DNA from: Bugula neritina
Lineage: Eukaryota > Animalia > Bryozoa
Assembly (NCBI GenBank): GCA_964035545.1
Contig: OZ037767.1
Coordinates: 8,876,581 to 8,940,580, forward strand
Reading direction: 5' to 3'
Length of the DNA: 64,000 bases
In this document: positions 3,417-38,502 of the stretch, one piece after another
How the letters are laid out: each line of letters opens with the position of its first letter
Position numbering within the stretch: the stretch's first letter is position 1
Position numbers and translations under genes: made by a program
The notes under the pieces: generated by a model
Seen by the model: the letters and a program-made list of their open reading frames with translations, nothing else
Told to the model about the DNA's origin: nothing
Database searches by the model: none

Positions 3417-4607
3417 AAAAGAAACTGTTTTGAATAACAATATCTTTACTCAGCTCTGACAAGCTACCTGTACACATCAAACATAATTATTATTATGCTC
3501 AAATATAAATATTCAGTCATAAACAATGTATATAAATGATCAATGATAATTACTGCCAGCTAACAATTAGTTTTTGGTTTATATATTCCATACATGCATA
3601 TCATATCATAGAACATCATGCATATGGTGCTGTAACACAATAATCGCATATATACATTTTAACAAAAATTATACATCACGAAATATTAAAGTGTCTTTGG
3701 GTAAAATACAAAGAATCTTATTGTTTGAGGCAACAATTGATATGCTCTTGTGCTACTGCAAGCTCCTGTTTTCTTGCTTTCCCACATGTGAGAAGATAAC
3801 CCTAAACTAATCATAAGAAGTACAGCATCTAATGGAGGGATAACTCTCAATAAGCAATGTACAAATATTTATAGTGTTTAATATAATAATATTATTATTA
3901 TATGAAAGCATCAATCATAACGCATTACAAATAATCTATACCAGGGGTGTCCAACCTTTTCAAAGCAAGGGCTATTAAAATTGAATCTTGAATGTTTCCA
4001 AATTACTTTATTCCAAATTATCATGACTCATTACACAATTAAATAAAGTTCCAATAGTTACTTCAGGCTGCATCTTTTTAGCATGTATATAAATTTAAAA
4101 CATTTAAAAGTGGCTTTTCAACTCTAATTCACATATGTGTGCAATTAATAGTTTTATTTGTTTTGCCTACATAAATGTATAGGCTAGGAGCCTCATCCAG
4201 CTCTGGAGCTGCCTGTTGCATAGACAACCCTGATTTCTACTAACAGACCGAGTAAGTTTGCTTACATTCACGGGCTTTCCATGTACCGATCTCAAATCGA
4301 TCTCGCTAAGATCGATCTGAGAAATGTGCTCAGATCGATCGTTTTTCCATGAGAGTGTCAGATCGATCTCGCGAAGTTGCCTCCTCTTAAGTGAAGGATA
4401 CTTTAAAAGTATAATTTGTTCACCTATTTGAGTGATTAAAGCTACTACTGTTGAAAACAAGATGGTCTTAGTCTAAAATTCAATCCCAGCTATAAAGTGT
4501 ACGTAGCAAAGCTTTCAGTGTATGGTAATTTGGCCAATTTAAAATAATTAATTTTAATTTTTTAGCTTGACAGCTTATATAAAATTAATGGCTGTCTTGC
4601 AGAGTAT

Positions 4608-4913
4608 TGTGGTGGTTCGTGGAACTACCAGCAGCACAACATGTAGGGTCGCGTAATTGACCCGGAACAATGGATAGCCAATTAGCGTAGTTGATAGTTA
4701 GCAGCAATTGTAGTTTCCCGCTGCTAACTCAGTCGAAGCTAGAGTGTGAAATAGATTAGATGTGTAACTTGTTGGAAATAATGTATCGTGTTTTTATAAT
4801 GTATAGTTGTGTATAAAATATACTCGTTCACTCGACTTAGCCTGGTGCAGTTCTATACTAGATAAATAGACTCTCTGGATAGCATATCAACCCTAAATCT
4901 GAAAATCTTAACA
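4608..4913 (+). repeat. 5' LTR (306 bp)
   Basis: Starts TGTGG and ends TAACA. Identical to 11788-12093 except G4901 vs A12081. Inr-like TCAGTC at ~4729 and TATAAAA at 4812. Confidence 0.98.
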
Positions 4914-4914
4914 G

Positions 4915-4932
4915 TGGTGGCAGCGGTGGGAT
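4915..4932 (+). promoter_or_regulatory. Primer-binding site complementary to tRNA-Leu 3' end
   Basis: TGGTGGCAGCGGTGGGAT lies 1 nt after the LTR and is the reverse complement of the conserved metazoan tRNA-Leu 3' end ATCCCACCGCTGCCA-CCA. Confidence 0.9.
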
Positions 4933-4944
4933 AGTGCATCCAAG

Positions 4945-5904
4945 ATGGAGACTGAAAATGCTGAAACTCAACCACCGGCAATCGAAGGTGAGCGTAGAGA
5001 CAATGCTATAGAGACAATGCCTGTTAACCATGTAGTAGAAGAGCGAAGGGTTCCGCGAGAACTAGCTGAAGACCGCTACAGGTTAAAGGCGCCCACCTTC
5101 ACGGGTGAAGAGGAGGTGGAACAATTTATCCAAGAGTTTAGCGACGTAATGGACGTCGCTCAGTGGCCCCCTAGGGTGGCCCTGCTGAAGCTTAGAATGG
5201 CATTGATGGACAAAGCCAAGCCCTATGGGCTGGGCATAGACATTGATAATATCTTTGCTTCTCTGCGGGCCCGCTTTGGCCTCTCGGCTACAGATGCCAG
5301 GGCCCGATTACAGAGGTTGCGGCGTGATCCCCGCACCCCGCTGCGGGAGCATGCCGCCGCGGTCATGAAGCTGGCACAGATCGCGTACAGCGACTTGCCC
5401 CCAGTCAATCGCGAGAGGTACACCCTCGACGCTTTCATAGCATCTGTCGACGATCTGGGTCTCCACCACCAGTTTCTAGCTAGGGGAGTCACCACCGTTG
5501 AAGATGCTCTGACTGAGGGGGAAGCTTACCTCCTAGCTAACCAAATGCATAAAAGTCGCGGAAGCTCCCGCCAAGTGGAGATAGACCGCGCAGACACGGC
5601 CGCGGGACAAGGGGAGGAAACCCCCGCCGCGGCTGCCGTGTCCCAGTTAGCGACGGCATCAAAAGTCACTCAACTGACGGACATGCTAGCCAAGCTGATA
5701 GCAACACTGACACCACAAAACCCAGTGAGTACCGCCCCTGAGCCCATGCGGCCATCGGCGCCGCCACAGGGAGAAACAGTCAGTTTTTGCTGGGAGTGCG
5801 GAAATCAAGGACATTTCCGCCGATATTGTCCCTTCCTAAATCAGGGGTTAAACTACCGCGGCCCGCAGATGTTCCCACCTTCCGCGGGCCGACGAAACCT
5901 CTAG
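4945..5904 (+). CDS. gag: Gag (capsid + CCHC zinc knuckle), 319 aa, intact
   Basis: ATG in AAGATGG context just after the PBS; CWECGNQGHFRRYC knuckle. Confidence 0.93.
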   Translation: METENAETQPPAIEGERRDNAIETMPVNHVVEERRVPRELAEDRYRLKAPTFTGEEEVEQFIQEFSDVMDVAQWPPRVALLKLRMALMDKAKPYGLGIDIDNIFASLRARFGLSATDARARLQRLRRDPRTPLREHAAAVMKLAQIAYSDLPPVNRERYTLDAFIASVDDLGLHHQFLARGVTTVEDALTEGEAYLLANQMHKSRGSSRQVEIDRADTAAGQGEETPAAAAVSQLATASKVTQLTDMLAKLIATLTPQNPVSTAPEPMRPSAPPQGETVSFCWECGNQGHFRRYCPFLNQGLNYRGPQMFPPSAGRRNL

Positions 5905-7145
5905 GGAAGAAGAAACGCAGGTCACCCAGACGGGTACCGCGTACTGGCAACCAACAGTGGCAACAGCCACGACGGACCAGCAAGGGGCTTCGCCCCGCGG
6001 CTGCCTTTTCTATGCCCCTTCACAACAGATTCACAGGGCTACAAGTCCAAGAACCTGGATGGGAGCACACAAAGGTAGCTGAGAATCTAGCCTCGGCACC
6101 CCCGAGGCCTACCTATCACCGCCCCAAGAGACCTCCTTCGCGACCCAAAGCGAGGGAGGTACTCCCTGCGAGAGTAAGGCCTGAAGGGAGAGTTCAGGTG
6201 CAGCCCCATGGGAACAGCTATTTCTTGCCCGGTAAACTGGAAGGCAAAGCTGTTACTTTTCTCATTGATTCGGGCTGTACCACAAACCTCTTAAGCCGCC
6301 AACTCTTCGACACCCTCAGTGCTAGGGTCAGGGGCGAGATGGAAGCATACGAAGGGGAATACGGCACCCTAGCTGACGGGTCGTGCCTTCCCTTCTATGG
6401 TATAATTGAGCTGACGGGACGAGTCCGCGATCAAACGATCCAAGAGACGTTCATCGTCAGTCAGCTCAAGGAGGATGCTATCCTCGGGATGCCGTTCCTT
6501 AAACGGCACGGATGTCACATAGATTTTAGCAGATCTGCAATGATGATGTCCGGGCGGGAACTCGCCTGCGTCGACAAGTTCGGCTGCCCTTTAGTGGGAG
6601 GTGTGCAAGTGGTACGCAACCGTACCATACCAGGCCGCTCCCGGGCTACCATTCACTGCAGGGTGAATGGTAGCCGGATCTCTGGACTCGGGGTGGTTGA
6701 AGGCGCGCACGAAAAGATCCAACTTGCCAGCAGTCTGAATCAGCTGACTGAGCAAGGGGAGATCTTAGTGCAGTGCGTCAACCCCTTTACCGAGCCTATC
6801 AAGCTCCCGGCTGGGTCGATGCTGGGCCGTTTTCACTCTGTTCAAGAGGGAGACGTAGGCCCGTCGCTGGGTGATGCGACAGAGGCACTCCCTCGACACC
6901 CTATTCAGGGACGAGGGGCAGTCCCAACACATCTCCGGGAGTTATACGAGACGGCCAGTAACGGCTGCGCGAGTAACAGAGAGCGCCAGGCTATGGCCAA
7001 GTTACTACGCGACTACGGTGATGTGTTCAGCAGCGGAGAGCATGACGTGGGACTGACTGGAATTGTCAGACACGAAAGGGGCAGGGACAGTCCCTGTCCG
7101 GCAGCCCACACGCAGGCTGGGGCCGGAGAAAGAGAAGGAGGTTAG
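5787..7145 (+). CDS. pol: Pol N-terminal part: aspartic protease and PR-RT linker
   Basis: FLIDSGC catalytic motif and ILGMPFL motif. Protein similarity ends at VRHE (7076), where the frame breaks. Confidence 0.9.
   Translation: MLGVRKSRTFPPILSLPKSGVKLPRPADVPTFRGPTKPLGKKKRRSPRRVPRTGNQQWQQPRRTSKGLRPAAAFSMPLHNRFTGLQVQEPGWEHTKVAENLASAPPRPTYHRPKRPPSRPKAREVLPARVRPEGRVQVQPHGNSYFLPGKLEGKAVTFLIDSGCTTNLLSRQLFDTLSARVRGEMEAYEGEYGTLADGSCLPFYGIIELTGRVRDQTIQETFIVSQLKEDAILGMPFLKRHGCHIDFSRSAMMMSGRELACVDKFGCPLVGGVQVVRNRTIPGRSRATIHCRVNGSRISGLGVVEGAHEKIQLASSLNQLTEQGEILVQCVNPFTEPIKLPAGSMLGRFHSVQEGDVGPSLGDATEALPRHPIQGRGAVPTHLRELYETASNGCASNRERQAMAKLLRDYGDVFSSGEHDVGLTGIVRHERGRDSPCPAAHTQAGAGEREGG
5847..5908 (+). 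promoter_or_regulatory. Predicted -1 programmed ribosomal frameshift (gag to pol)
   Basis: Heptamer G TTA AAC in the gag frame (5847-5853), 5-nt spacer, 8-bp stem CGGCCCGC (5859-5866) / GCGGGCCG (5884-5891). The protease ORF is in the -1 frame. Confidence 0.75.
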
Positions 7146-10100
7146 CCGACAAGTACGGGATCTTCTGGACCGGGGACTGATAGAGCCCGCCCATAGTGCG
7201 TGGAGCTCGCCAGTCGTACTGGTCCGGAAGAAAGACGGCAGTTGGCGGTTCTGTGTGGACTACCGCAAACTCAATAGCGTAACCATACAGGACGCCTACC
7301 CTCTACCTCGTATTGACGAGTCATTGGACGCCCTAGCCGGCAGCAAGTACTTCAGTACGTTAGACTTGCTAAGCGGCTATTGGCAGGTTCCTCTGAGTCC
7401 CGACGCCCAAGAGAAAGCGGCGTTTATCACACGGGACGGTTTGTGGAAGTGGAAGGTGCTGCCCTCCGGGTTAACCTCCGCCCCAGCCACCTTCCAGAGG
7501 CTGATGGAACAAGTCCTTAGCGGACTCCATTGGAAGACACTGCTGGTCTACCTCGATGATGTCATCGTAATCTCTCCAGACTTCGAGACACATGTCAGTC
7601 GTCTGCAGGAGGTTTTCGAGAGACTCCGAGGTGCCGGTCTTAAGCTCAAACCTTCCAAGTGCGCTCTGTTGCAGCCGGAGGTCAAGTACCTGGGGCACGT
7701 TGTCGGTCGAAACGGCGTGGCAACGGATCCCGAAAAGGTACGGGCAGTAGAAGACTGGGTCACCCCCCAAGACTTGACCGGACTCCGGGCTTTCTTGGGG
7801 CTGGTAGGGTATTACAGGCAATACATACCAGACTTTGCGGGCATAGCCCAGCCGTTAAACCGGCTTACCGCAAAGGGAGTGACGTGGCAGTGGACCCCAA
7901 TCGAACAAGAAGCGTTCGACCGCCTCAAGGGCTGCCTCCTAACGGCGCCCATCTTGGCCTACCCAGACCCCACTCTGGAGTACATCCTAGACACGGACGC
8001 CAGTGACCAGAATGTTGGCGCTGTGCTGTCACAAGTGCAGGAAGGCCGAGAAGTAGTAGTAGCCTACTACAGCAAGTCTCTCTCTCCCGCTGAACGAAAT
8101 TACTGCACTACCCGCAAGGAACTGCTGGCAGTAATCAAGTCAGTGAAGCACTTCAGACCATACCTATATGGCAGGAAGTTCCGGCTGCGTACGGATCATG
8201 CCTCGCTGATCTGGTTGTGCAGGAGAGCAGAGCCCTCTAGTCAGGTCGCCCGGTGGCTCGAAATCCTAGCTGAATTCTCATACCGGATCGAACATCGACC
8301 GGGCAAGAGACACAGCAATGCGGATGGGTTGAGTCGCCGACCTGACGGAGGTTGCAAACAGTGTCTCAACATCGAGAGGAGGGACGGAGGTCCCCCACGA
8401 TGCGAGTTGGAGACGCTGGCTCATCACGGAGCACCGTTTGACTGGGATCAAGGTCAACTCAGGCAAAGAGTTGACGAGCCCCCGGAGGATGTGCAAAACC
8501 TCCGCGCCAACCCTGTACTGGCCGGTAATGTTCGAGAGCTGAAGAAGCTCCAAGAAGAGCTGCCTGGAGTCGTGGCAGACATATACCGGGCCAAACGGGA
8601 AGGGCGACGACCCAGCGAGGAACGCATAAGACAGGGATGCGCCGAGTTCCGGCTATACTGTCAGCGTTGGGACTCGCTGCGGATCGGGCAGGATGGGTTA
8701 CTAACCATCTCTCTAGCTGCCAGCGGCAGACACCCGGAAAGGAAGAGGGTAGTCTGCCCCACAGCCATCCGCCGTGAGTTGATTTGGGACACTCACAAGC
8801 AGGTCCACGCAGGGGTCAAGCGAGTGATGTCCAAATTACGACTCCGGTGGTATTGGCCGCAGATGGAGCGTGACGTCCGGCTCAGAGTCAAACAGTGTGA
8901 GATCTGCCAGGCCAGTAAGCATAGCCGCCCCCCTGGTGAAGCAGGACGGCGGAGGCTATATGCTGGCAGGCCCTGGCAAGTAGTCGCTGTAGACCTGGTC
9001 GGACCCATGCCCCTGACCCCCAGAGGCAATAATTGGATCCTAGTACTAACCGACCACTTTACTAGGTGGGCGGATGCTCTGGCTATCCCAGATGCATCAG
9101 CCCCAACAGTGGCCAGGGCACTAGACCAACATGTATTCTGTTATTTTGGGCTCCCCGAACAGATACACTCTGATCAAGGCGCTCAATTCCAGTCTCAACT
9201 GATGAGCGACCTTTGCCACCTCTGGGGAGTAAATCAGAGCAGGACCACCCCCTACCACCCTCAAGGTAACGGGGTGGTGGAGCGCAACAACCGGATGCTA
9301 GGTGATGCACTCCGGAGTCTCCTCCTTGGACGAGGTCAAGAGGAATGGGATACGGTGTTGCCGCAAGTCATGCGTGCATACCGTAGCACCCCACACACCA
9401 GTACTGGTGAGACCCCAAACCTCTTGATGCTCGGGAGGGAGACTCGTGTCCCTGACCATCTCACCTATCACGTTCCAGAGCAGGATAACTCAGTCCATGA
9501 GTATGCCAGTGAACTAGTGGAACGGATGAAGGCCGCACACGAGATACTGCGTCAACAGCAGTGGAAGGTGCGGCACGAAGATTCCGATGAACCACCCCTC
9601 TATCAAAGAGGAGATAAGGTGTGGATGGTCAATTACCGTAGGCGCCGCGGACAGGCTGATAAGCTGAAGCCTAAGTTCGTAGGCCCCTACGTGGTCGTCG
9701 AGGCTATGCCCAATCATACGTACAAGATTGAGCGCTCAGGACAGGTGTCTATCCAGAATGAGTCTCGCTTGAAACCATATTGGGCTAGCCCCGGCGGAGT
9801 GGGAGAAGCCCCCCCGTTGTTAGAGCCCAGGAGGCAGACAACAACGCGCGGGCGACGGCGGCATGGACCTGAATACGAAGTGGTCATACCGCGGGAAGAA
9901 AACTTGGTGAGAGAGGAGCGGCAGCTTTTGTCAACAGAAGCGTGTCCGCCACCGCCAAGTCTAATTCCATCACTTCCAGAAGCCGAGCCGGTTCCGGAAG
10001 TGCAAACCCCCACGGAGGGAGGGGCTCCATCCGGAGAACAAGAAGAGGTGACCGGGGACGGTGAAGTAGAGACGCCATTAGAGGCCCCTACTAACGAACC

Positions 10101-10179
10101 GGCAAGCGTGTCACCCCCCCCTAGAAAGGGGTCAGCGTACGAGGCAACCCCCCGCATACTTGAAAGACTTCGTATGTGA
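7063..10179 (+). CDS. pol: Pol: reverse transcriptase, RNase H, integrase
   Basis: WRFCVDYRKLN, YLDD, TDAS, HHCC zinc domain, D-D-E (VDLVGP, HSDQG, VERNNR), GPY motif. Out of frame with the protease. The true C-terminus appears to continue in the +1 frame to 10408. Confidence 0.95.
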   Translation: MSDTKGAGTVPVRQPTRRLGPEKEKEVSRQVRDLLDRGLIEPAHSAWSSPVVLVRKKDGSWRFCVDYRKLNSVTIQDAYPLPRIDESLDALAGSKYFSTLDLLSGYWQVPLSPDAQEKAAFITRDGLWKWKVLPSGLTSAPATFQRLMEQVLSGLHWKTLLVYLDDVIVISPDFETHVSRLQEVFERLRGAGLKLKPSKCALLQPEVKYLGHVVGRNGVATDPEKVRAVEDWVTPQDLTGLRAFLGLVGYYRQYIPDFAGIAQPLNRLTAKGVTWQWTPIEQEAFDRLKGCLLTAPILAYPDPTLEYILDTDASDQNVGAVLSQVQEGREVVVAYYSKSLSPAERNYCTTRKELLAVIKSVKHFRPYLYGRKFRLRTDHASLIWLCRRAEPSSQVARWLEILAEFSYRIEHRPGKRHSNADGLSRRPDGGCKQCLNIERRDGGPPRCELETLAHHGAPFDWDQGQLRQRVDEPPEDVQNLRANPVLAGNVRELKKLQEELPGVVADIYRAKREGRRPSEERIRQGCAEFRLYCQRWDSLRIGQDGLLTISLAASGRHPERKRVVCPTAIRRELIWDTHKQVHAGVKRVMSKLRLRWYWPQMERDVRLRVKQCEICQASKHSRPPGEAGRRRLYAGRPWQVVAVDLVGPMPLTPRGNNWILVLTDHFTRWADALAIPDASAPTVARALDQHVFCYFGLPEQIHSDQGAQFQSQLMSDLCHLWGVNQSRTTPYHPQGNGVVERNNRMLGDALRSLLLGRGQEEWDTVLPQVMRAYRSTPHTSTGETPNLLMLGRETRVPDHLTYHVPEQDNSVHEYASELVERMKAAHEILRQQQWKVRHEDSDEPPLYQRGDKVWMVNYRRRRGQADKLKPKFVGPYVVVEAMPNHTYKIERSGQVSIQNESRLKPYWASPGGVGEAPPLLEPRRQTTTRGRRRHGPEYEVVIPREENLVREERQLLSTEACPPPPSLIPSLPEAEPVPEVQTPTEGGAPSGEQEEVTGDGEVETPLEAPTNEPASVSPPPRKGSAYEATPRILERLRM

Positions 10180-10687
10180 CTGCGTTAAAAGCGGCACACA
10201 TGAAAGTCTAGGGGAAAACCGTACGAGAAAAGAATCGAGCAAATGTGGGAGTTGTCAACACCACGGAAATATCAACTTTTGTATCGGCGGAAATAGAAAC
10301 AAAATTCATCCGCCGGGTGCACAAAGTCTTAATCACGCACCCCAACCACGTTGCTCGATCTTTTCATACGCTGATGCAGTCAAGAGTAGACGTGTTTCTA
10401 AGCAGTAGTTCAAACCATTTCACATATTCAGTATGTCTTACGACAACAGATCGTGGGGTGAGTTAACTATATCTTAATACGAAACTAGATTGCATCGCTC
10501 AGCTCTGACTCACTGAGTCAATCGAGCTGGAGATAGGTTAGTGAAATACCGTAGTAAGAACTCAGTTTGACTTAGAGATTTTTATAATCTCATTGCAATA
10601 CGGTTCTATCTGACTATTCACTATCATTAATCTCTACGAGGTAACTGAATTAGGAGTTGCCAAGCTGTTCAAGCTGACAACACAGCA

Positions 10688-11509
10688 GTGTACTGTACTA
10701 ACACTGTTGAAACTTTTTCAGATTACACTCGACCCGCCACAACCAGGGTACGGGATAGAACACTTCCCGCTCCGTATCCGGAGGACTATGCTAGTGGTGA
10801 CCGGCCTGAGCCACTACGCCGCCGTTGGCGGTGGGTGTCTCCACAAACCGAAGAAGAAATAGAAACAGCCTGGGGGTCCAGAGGACGGACGAGATGCCAG
10901 ATCTGTGGTGAAGATTGCGCCTCTCACCGCTCCCTTAAACTACACGTCAATGCTCATCTCCTACTGACCTTCTGCCCCTGTGGGTACAATGATGTGTATC
11001 CCTACCCCGTCACCAGACACAGAGCGGCGGGCTGTTTCCCTGGAGAAAACTATGTGGTCGACGCTAAGCTGTACCCGGAGTTCCTCACGTATATACGACC
11101 TCTGGTAAAGAAGGCCATGCTATTAGCCGTTCTATCCTCGGGGTTCCAACGTGTGTTAGACAACGCCCGCCAACAATCCCCGCTGGTGTCTGACCGCCCT
11201 CCAATTACATACACCCCCGAGGAAACTACATATCCAGAAGAAGGAGAGATCTCCCCTACCCCGGCGAAGAGACGGACCAGGTCCCCCAGTCCACCCTTAC
11301 GCCGCAGACGAACACCGTCCCCAGACCCAGTACGACTAGCTACAGTAGAAGAACGCCTCCTACGATTACAAGAAGAGTTCACCCAGCTGGCGCCAGATCT
11401 ACTTAACACTACCACAGGACTCTTCCAGCTGAAGGGATCCGTATGCCGTATGAAACGGAAACTGCGTACATGCCAAGCCAAGCACCGGCGTGCCCAACAA
11501 GGACTCTAG
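10688..11509 (+). CDS. Retrotransposon ORF3: zinc-finger / basic SR-rich / coiled-coil accessory protein, probably expressed by splicing (exon starts at 10722)
   Basis: Open 273-codon frame with C-x2-C-x12-H-x3-H and C-x-C-x12-H-x4-C motifs (10895-11035), KRRTRSPSPPLRRRRTPSP, and a heptad-rich C-terminus. TACTAAC at 10696-10702 and TTTTTCAG acceptor ending at 10721. Confidence 0.8.
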   Translation: MYCTNTVETFSDYTRPATTRVRDRTLPAPYPEDYASGDRPEPLRRRWRWVSPQTEEEIETAWGSRGRTRCQICGEDCASHRSLKLHVNAHLLLTFCPCGYNDVYPYPVTRHRAAGCFPGENYVVDAKLYPEFLTYIRPLVKKAMLLAVLSSGFQRVLDNARQQSPLVSDRPPITYTPEETTYPEEGEISPTPAKRRTRSPSPPLRRRRTPSPDPVRLATVEERLLRLQEEFTQLAPDLLNTTTGLFQLKGSVCRMKRKLRTCQAKHRRAQQGL

Positions 11510-11776
11510 TATGCTACCCAGAATACTCCACATTTGGTGAGGAACCAAAATCGTGCAAATGCTTAACTGCTAGACAGGTTATTCCTTGTCTAATACCACA
11601 GCTAGCTAGTATTCCTCGTCTATCTACAGCTGGCCAATTGTATGCAACGGATCGTTATAACGACTCTGTCTATTATTATGTCTCTTCCTGTATATTATGT
11701 ATTATTTTTGTCCACTGATGTATGCAATTACTATTGAATGTTTTTTTTATATATATCAGAAAGATAGCTTTCTGCT

Positions 11777-11787
11777 GGTGGGGGCGG
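11777..11787 (+). promoter_or_regulatory. Polypurine tract
   Basis: GGTGGGGGCGG immediately before the 3' LTR. Confidence 0.75.
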
Positions 11788-12093
11788 TGTGGTGGTTCGT
11801 GGAACTACCAGCAGCACAACATGTAGGGTCGCGTAATTGACCCGGAACAATGGATAGCCAATTAGCGTAGTTGATAGTTAGCAGCAATTGTAGTTTCCCG
11901 CTGCTAACTCAGTCGAAGCTAGAGTGTGAAATAGATTAGATGTGTAACTTGTTGGAAATAATGTATCGTGTTTTTATAATGTATAGTTGTGTATAAAATA
12001 TACTCGTTCACTCGACTTAGCCTGGTGCAGTTCTATACTAGATAAATAGACTCTCTGGATAGCATATCAACCCTAAATCTAAAAATCTTAACA
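11788..12093 (+). repeat. 3' LTR (306 bp)
   Basis: 305/306 identical to the 5' LTR; followed by the GTAT TSD. Confidence 0.98.
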
Positions 12094-12823
12094 GTATTAA
12101 TAAACTTACAGGACTGTTAAGCTTAAAATTACAAAAAGATAGCTAATGAAACTAAGTTTTATTAGTCATTTAAATTCAATTTAAATTCTCCCATTTTTTT
12201 TACCTTCTACTGCATATAATTTAGTTTTCTTAATCATTGTATTGAAAGTCAAAGTTTTGGCATCTGAAAAGTTGGCCATCATAATTATTTAATACTTTGC
12301 TTAGTAATTATGAATAAGTTATCATTTTCATTAGCAGACGACATTGTAGCTCGCAGTCTTTTTCTACTTCTCAGATCGATCTGGCGTCTTTCCATGGTCT
12401 TATTGACATGAGATCGATCTGAGTTCGAGCTCTACAGACCGACCAGCTCGGATCGACCGAGATCGATCTTTGGCGTCTTTCCATGGATCGATCTCACTGA
12501 GATCGATCTGAGATCGGTCCATGGAAAGCCGGTGATTAACTGTAGTTAAAGGTACACAGGTCACGCCCTTTAAACATAAAGTCTTTAGTAGATCAAAGTA
12601 AAAGCTGTAAGGATTACAGATTTGTGTAAAGCTGTAACTATCATTACTGCTAATTCCCATTCTGGCAAGGCTAATATATACATAACAGAGCAAAGCTCCC
12701 TCACCTATTGAATCAGGTTTTAGACTTATAAAACACTTTATTACACAACTAGCAGATTAGAGTGATTTATTATAATAAAATATAAATTGAAATAATTTAT
12801 TATAAAATGGTATTTATGGGAAA

Positions 12824-26288: not shown

Positions 26289-38502
<12,214 letters not shown>

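Follow-up and report, generated by a model that had tools for sequence, protein, structure and literature searches.

A probable gag-leader/ORF3 splice and its predicted two-finger, non-envelope product in a Ty3/gypsy retrotransposon of the bryozoan Bugula neritina

Background

Splicing of a third open reading frame (ORF) to a Gag peptide is already known among retrotransposons with long terminal repeats (LTRs), from the env of the idefix subclade and from CERV. In the idefix subclade of the Drosophila errantiviruses, env is a third ORF that is spliced onto a Gag peptide, as the passages on this subclade describe (10.1101/2023.08.03.551782). CERV is encoded by Cer1, a Ty3/gypsy element of Caenorhabditis elegans, and is not an envelope protein; according to the sections of PMC10309623 that deal with it, CERV is made from spliced RNA, has its N-terminus in common with Gag, contains a Cys-rich finger as well as a coiled-coil region, and is needed for export of the unspliced RNA. 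The same sections describe a protein of 517 amino acids (aa) from five exons, with a C4-type loop and a G-protein-like domain, that lacks obvious homologs beyond the nematodes. There are few invertebrate LTR elements with strong splice sites for which the retention and export of unspliced RNA are understood. In this study, a Ty3/gypsy LTR retrotransposon was analysed that lies at 4608-12093 of a 64,000-nucleotide (nt) stretch of Bugula neritina DNA (the window; contig OZ037767.1, positions 8,876,581 to 8,940,580), with emphasis on its third ORF, ORF3.

The analysis indicates that this element probably produces a spliced RNA and that ORF3 probably encodes an accessory, non-envelope regulator; the splice itself is very probably real. 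An earlier note on this DNA had proposed such an RNA and had named the env of gypsy as its precedent. Expression of an ORF by splicing is indeed a known strategy, but the idefix-subclade env and CERV are nearer cases.

Like CERV, the predicted ORF3 protein shares the start of gag, depends on splicing, bears a finger and is not an envelope protein, whereas it differs from CERV in its length of 276 aa, its single intron, its C2H2 and C2HC fingers and an exon 2 that follows pol. No homology to CERV or Rev turned up in the Pfam, Foldseek, profile and VIA-align searches, which involved low-confidence models and no direct comparison. As in the idefix subclade, a third ORF after pol is joined by splicing to a Gag peptide, but the env of that subclade encodes an F-type envelope glycoprotein, whereas a soluble zinc-finger protein is predicted here. 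Of the features that mark an errantivirus-type env, a spliced third ORF is indicated (by in-phase signals and the joined protein P0024, described below), whereas a signal peptide, an anchor and homology to fusion proteins were not found in ORF3.

Bdelloid rotifer LTR elements carry non-env ORF3s (PMC5408684) and plant elements carry additional ORFs (PMC7264820). In the passages concerned, these ORFs resemble the one studied here in occupying the env slot and in their proposed auxiliary role, but they encode GDSL-like, DEDDy-like or membrane proteins; those passages mention no gag-leader splice, and the word 'finger' is absent from the text of PMC5408684. The small ORFs of MDG1 are unspliced, according to the part of 10.1101/2025.03.14.642691 that treats them, and the relevant parts of PMC13524379, PMC8220671, PMC13326412 and PMC7197481 contain nothing on such a protein. 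No description of the two-finger ORF3 family was found in the literature searched, which did not extend to subscription journals, Repbase or preprint supplements, and within that literature the family is apparently undescribed.

Splice signals and reading frames

The earlier note's positions for the donor, branch point and acceptor, together with their phases, the length of the intron and that of the product, all held on recalculation (Table 1). The donor was the sole GT site, among 429 in the element, to match eight of the nine consensus positions. At the other end of the intron, the acceptor TTTTTCAG ends at 10721 and base 10722 is codon position 2 in the ORF3 frame (phase 1), so that the 14 codons of exon 1, the one split codon and the 261 whole codons of exon 2 add up to 276 aa (14+1+261). 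The phases of a donor and an acceptor match by chance alone in one case out of three.

It had also been claimed that ORF3 has no nearby ATG, and the first ATG in its frame was in fact located at 11117, 130 codons before the end and past both fingers. Readthrough from pol into ORF3 was rejected because the stretch 10180-10721 contains six stops in the ORF3 frame.

The perfect TACTAAC heptamer is present as had been described, but it is less special than was implied, with four occurrences in the element and 14 on the plus strand of the window. A perfect heptamer was found in three of 52 branch-plus-YAG candidates. Two of these three lie in the integrase region (8716 and 9065), and only the third, 10721, combines a T5 tract with a branch distance of 20 nt. 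The extra TACTAAC-plus-YAG sites in pol (8699-8716 and 9044-9065) are probably due to chance. The site at 8699-8716 is in pol phase 1, directly 5' of the integrase zinc domain, and has a branch distance of 12 nt. A 9-bp hairpin is predicted at 10683-10710, with the branch point partly inside its loop and partly next to it; this arrangement could tune splicing. Taken by itself, the sequence makes a good, not a decisive, case for the splice.

A joined protein in a relative

Searches for relatives of the ORF3 protein returned 72 among 1403 candidates when exon 2 was used and 140 among 7987 candidates when a profile was used (the best 120 of the 140 were listed). In one relative, P0024, the first 14 residues match the gag N-terminus of P0126 at every position (14/14) and that of eight further proteins, among the 120 gag proteins listed, at 13/14 positions. 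After this leader, P0024 continues with D-H-T-R, the start of exon 2, and the join therefore falls at the predicted residue on both sides, which supports the spliced gag-leader/ORF3 form put forward in the earlier note.

The acceptor position is spanned by 34 of 134 ORF3 proteins, that of the present copy included, and all 33 of these other than P0024 extend into intron-side sequence, indicating that the gene caller ignores introns. On this basis, the simplest reading of P0024 is that it is spliced and contiguous: it may be a transcript or, in view of its contig of 5320 nt (versus the 6565-nt unspliced span in this copy), a DNA copy made by reverse transcription. Alternatively, the signals could have arisen by chance and P0024 could be the product of a random deletion, a template switch or an assembly chimera. 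P0024 is a single record known as protein only, TACTAAC plus YAG is found twice in the integrase, and no junction was seen among the contigs of two sequencing runs, all of which would suit such an explanation. By arithmetic, however, a random in-frame fusion of gag and ORF3 has a chance of roughly one in 319 x 273 of falling on the two predicted codons, and the junction had been predicted blind; this explanation is accordingly considered very improbable.

Conservation at the donor and acceptor

Conservation of the signals in the family had been proposed as a check. Traces of both donor and acceptor are kept in the family at the protein level, the level at which the comparison was made, rather than on DNA. 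This copy and 66 of the 120 listed gag relatives, picked by eye for an intact N-terminus, were aligned. The E-G-E that covers the donor in gag ends leaders that are mostly 10 or 14 residues long, and its last E is invariant (67/67). Four further columns are invariant too, and the rest of the leader varies; in nine other Glu-rich gag columns, Glu accounts for 50/62 to 65/67 of the residues. In the 67 gag rows, the residue of the split codon is G in 59, S in 5, R in 1 and D in 2. On the acceptor side, the split codon is preceded by S in 30/33 and by L in 3/33 proteins, both of which can encode YA/G, and the residue that follows in the acceptor-spanning relatives is D or G.

Several observations weigh against the splice. 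In the contigs of the two sequencing runs that contain the element, no 4987/10722 joint was seen: neither of the two joints at 95% corresponds to it, nor does any of the 15 listed, out of 54, at 85%. The RNA run among them, X1 (share 0.18), has zero depth in the acceptor bin and almost none in the donor bin, and because it covers neither splice site, the absence of the joint says nothing on the expression or splicing of this copy. The low-depth pol pieces of X1 may be DNA. The joined form represents one of the 134 ORF3 proteins, is 54% identical to this copy and is known as protein only, and usable DNA of relatives was not found in scans of metagenome, viral and genome contigs. At the split gag codon, the change from G to S or R does not discriminate, as other Gly columns vary in the same way. 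Finally, an in-frame Met is located three codons 5' of the acceptor in 22/33 proteins, and a Met is found at exon-2 position 18 in 28/34 rows, so that many relatives could start ORF3 without splicing.

The only locus obtained from the metagenome-contig scan, L001, proved to be an unrelated host finger gene.

These Met residues, and the spacer of 470 nt between pol and the ORF3 frame, would fit expression of ORF3 that bypasses the gag leader by means of an internal promoter or a different leader, with translation from its own ATG in relatives and from a GTG in the ORF3 frame at 10688 in this copy. However, this copy has neither of the alternative Met residues near the acceptor, the upstream Met position is T or I in 11/33 proteins, this copy included, and the sample is biased to Met since gene callers start there. 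Leaderless expression also leaves P0024 and the invariant gag E unexplained, and it is regarded as improbable.

The ORF3 protein and its family

The earlier note had described the product as a zinc-finger protein; fingers are present, but the layout is two fingers plus a long helix instead of one finger. Finger 1 and finger 2 are followed by a helical segment, then by a linker rich in proline and finally by the C-terminal helix. A full HMMER scan returned 110 cluster representatives at E<=0.001. In a broad alignment of 45 near and distant members, four finger ligands are present in 45/45 and the other four in 38/43 to 44/45; the ligands of finger 1 (C 42/44, C 44/45, H 45/45, H 45/45) place it with the C2H2 fingers, and the family profile matches C2H2 proteins (HIC2, E 3.5e-6).

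No Pfam family scored above cut-off for this copy or for the best matches of 42 aligned members. Finger 1 has the canonical spacing of C2H2 proteins (PF00096; HIC2, SALL, ZBTB), but it reached 13.3 bits against PF00096, below the cut-off of 25.2, and finger 2 with the surrounding module (W...T...I / F-C-x-C-G / V-D) matched no Pfam family. AlphaFold models were of low confidence (pLDDT 61.9 and 56.4). A Foldseek search of PDB and viral structures had no hit at E<=0.001, and VIA-align returned generic long helices only (Z<5).

Among 30 proteins looked up, the named family members came from bryozoans only, Watersipora subatra and Bugula neritina. The two-finger module was observed, in distant forms, in the annotated bryozoan proteins P0269, P0316 and P0360; bryozoan records with the module include XP_067940964.1 (two copies of the module), XP_067944745.1 and KAF6040923.1. 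These proteins could be encoded by host genes or domesticated copies, or by elements that have escaped recognition.

Because ORF3 occupies the usual env slot, and its position and splicing are as in the env of insect gypsy elements, the possibility that it encodes an env or fusogen was considered. This identity was rejected, and scarcely any probability is assigned to it, since neither a transmembrane nor a signal-peptide-like stretch was seen in ORF3 (hydropathy maximum 1.24, with values above 1.6 in 3/42 members), no env match was found in Pfam or among viral structures, and zinc fingers are present.

A proposed role in the handling of unspliced RNA

In the proposed mechanism, the LTR transcript would either be kept whole, serving as gag and pol message and as genome, or lose 4988-10721 by a single splice, after which the gag ATG would open ORF3 and a two-finger, coiled-coil-like protein of 276 aa would be made. 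As the earlier note had held, ORF3 would not depend on the damaged pol of this copy: pol lies inside the predicted intron, and its break would therefore be irrelevant to ORF3. The protein would likely work in the nucleus and regulate the element's own RNA; its fingers would bind genomic RNA in a structured part that is confined to the intron, and would help this RNA to escape splicing and leave the nucleus. By analogy, such a CERV- or Rev-like role is the favoured one, offered tentatively and short of being probable.

The intron folds better than shuffled sequences, best at 6633-6782, and thus offers a possible target for the ORF3 protein. In this analysis of a single sequence, windows with z<-3 made up 9/38 in the intron, 0/7 in exon 2 and 0/36 in host DNA (24 shuffles each), and the best window is a candidate cis-acting element of the unspliced RNA. 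It sits between protease and reverse transcriptase (RT), contains a long perfect hairpin near 6643-6674 and has a z of -5.1 on the minus strand.

An export function is countered by the finding that no conserved export signal was established in the ORF3 family, by the absence of the RS-like basic repeat of this copy from most relatives, and by the tendency of C2H2 fingers to bind DNA more often. The splice may be real and the protein a DNA-binding factor, involved in LTR activation, in countering host silencing or in integration tethering rather than in the handling of RNA. Finger 1 is a canonical C2H2 finger, the top structural and profile rows are all DNA-binding finger proteins (the structural rows not being significant), and related domains are found in annotated bryozoan proteins. 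On the other hand, just one of the fingers is canonical, and a lone canonical finger is usually insufficient for specific DNA binding. Moreover, a strong donor and acceptor require a means of keeping genomic RNA unspliced, as the sections on CERV in PMC10309623 suggest. A DNA-binding role is ranked second to the CERV- or Rev-like one and is considered less likely than not.

The primer-binding site and the polypurine tract would both be retained in the spliced RNA, which could for this reason be copied back, in trans, into an LTR-to-LTR mini-copy of 1752 bp; P0024, with its contig of 5320 nt, would most simply be such a reverse-transcribed mini-copy. In the broadest and rather doubtful form of the proposal, a marine-invertebrate, env-less gypsy lineage would have become 'complex' independently, with one splice that places a new two-finger protein after the gag start, Rev-like export of the structured unspliced genome by this protein, a spliced RNA that retrotransposes as a mini-element of 1.75 kb, and a two-finger module moved between elements and bryozoan host genes.

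The ORF3 family provides a second, apparently unrelated candidate beside CERV for unspliced-RNA export in invertebrate elements. With it come an exact junction, a defined family of proteins and a candidate target RNA. Gene callers mis-start such ORFs, and assembled contigs can contain a spliced form.

Features of the element and its surroundings

The order of the pol domains (protease, RT, RNase H, integrase) fits membership in Ty3/gypsy, and the RT is nearest to that of Ty3 among solved structures (Ty3 RT, E 1e-93). The element was judged to be young, and a 4-bp target duplication, GTAT, is present on both flanks (4604-4607 and 12094-12097). The primer-binding site is presumably of the tRNA-Leu type. 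The pol frameshift at 7057-7145 is present although the LTRs differ at one base only; contigs of other copies differ there, and the break therefore probably concerns only this copy or its assembly.

Table 1. Positions of the features of the element within the window
Feature	Positions	Strand	Remarks
5' LTR	4608..4913	+	306 bp, TG...CA; single mismatch vs 3' LTR
Primer-binding site	4915..4932	+	5' of the donor, retained in spliced RNA
gag	4945..5904	+	319 aa, one zinc knuckle
Coding exon 1	4945..4987	+	gag ATG at 4945; 14 codons plus one base (43 nt)
Splice donor AAG/GTGAGC	4985..4993, cut 4987/4988	+	phase 1; read as E-G-E in gag
Predicted intron	4988..10721	+	5734 nt; spans the whole of pol and the greater part of gag
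pol (protease, RT, RNase H, integrase)	5742..10179	+	frameshifted: protease frame to 7145, RT frame from 7057
Strongest-folding RNA window	6633..6782	+	z -6.7, 0/200 shuffles; best of 98 windows
Branch point TACTAAC	10696..10702	+	20 nt to acceptor
Pyrimidine tract and acceptor CTTTTTCAG	10713..10721	+	T5 tract; compatible residues in relatives
Coding exon 2 (ORF3)	10722..11509	+	261 whole codons; stop TAG 11507-11509
Finger 1	10895..10957	+	C-x2-C-x12-H-x3-H (C2H2)
Finger 2	10973..11035	+	C-x-C-x12-H-x4-C (atypical C2HC)
Long C-terminal helix	11327..11503	+	coiled-coil-like, basic end, 59 residues
Polypurine tract	11777..11787	+	3' of the acceptor, retained in spliced RNA
3' LTR	11788..12093	+	

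At some distance on either side of the element, GATCGATC-rich inverted arms were observed (about 4269-4380 and 12360-12536), which resemble a miniature inverted-repeat transposable element with the retrotransposon inserted inside it. The flanks of the element look like animal DNA, and at about 29690-29900 of the window (plus strand) there is a stretch that we take to be an exon of an animal phosphofructokinase.

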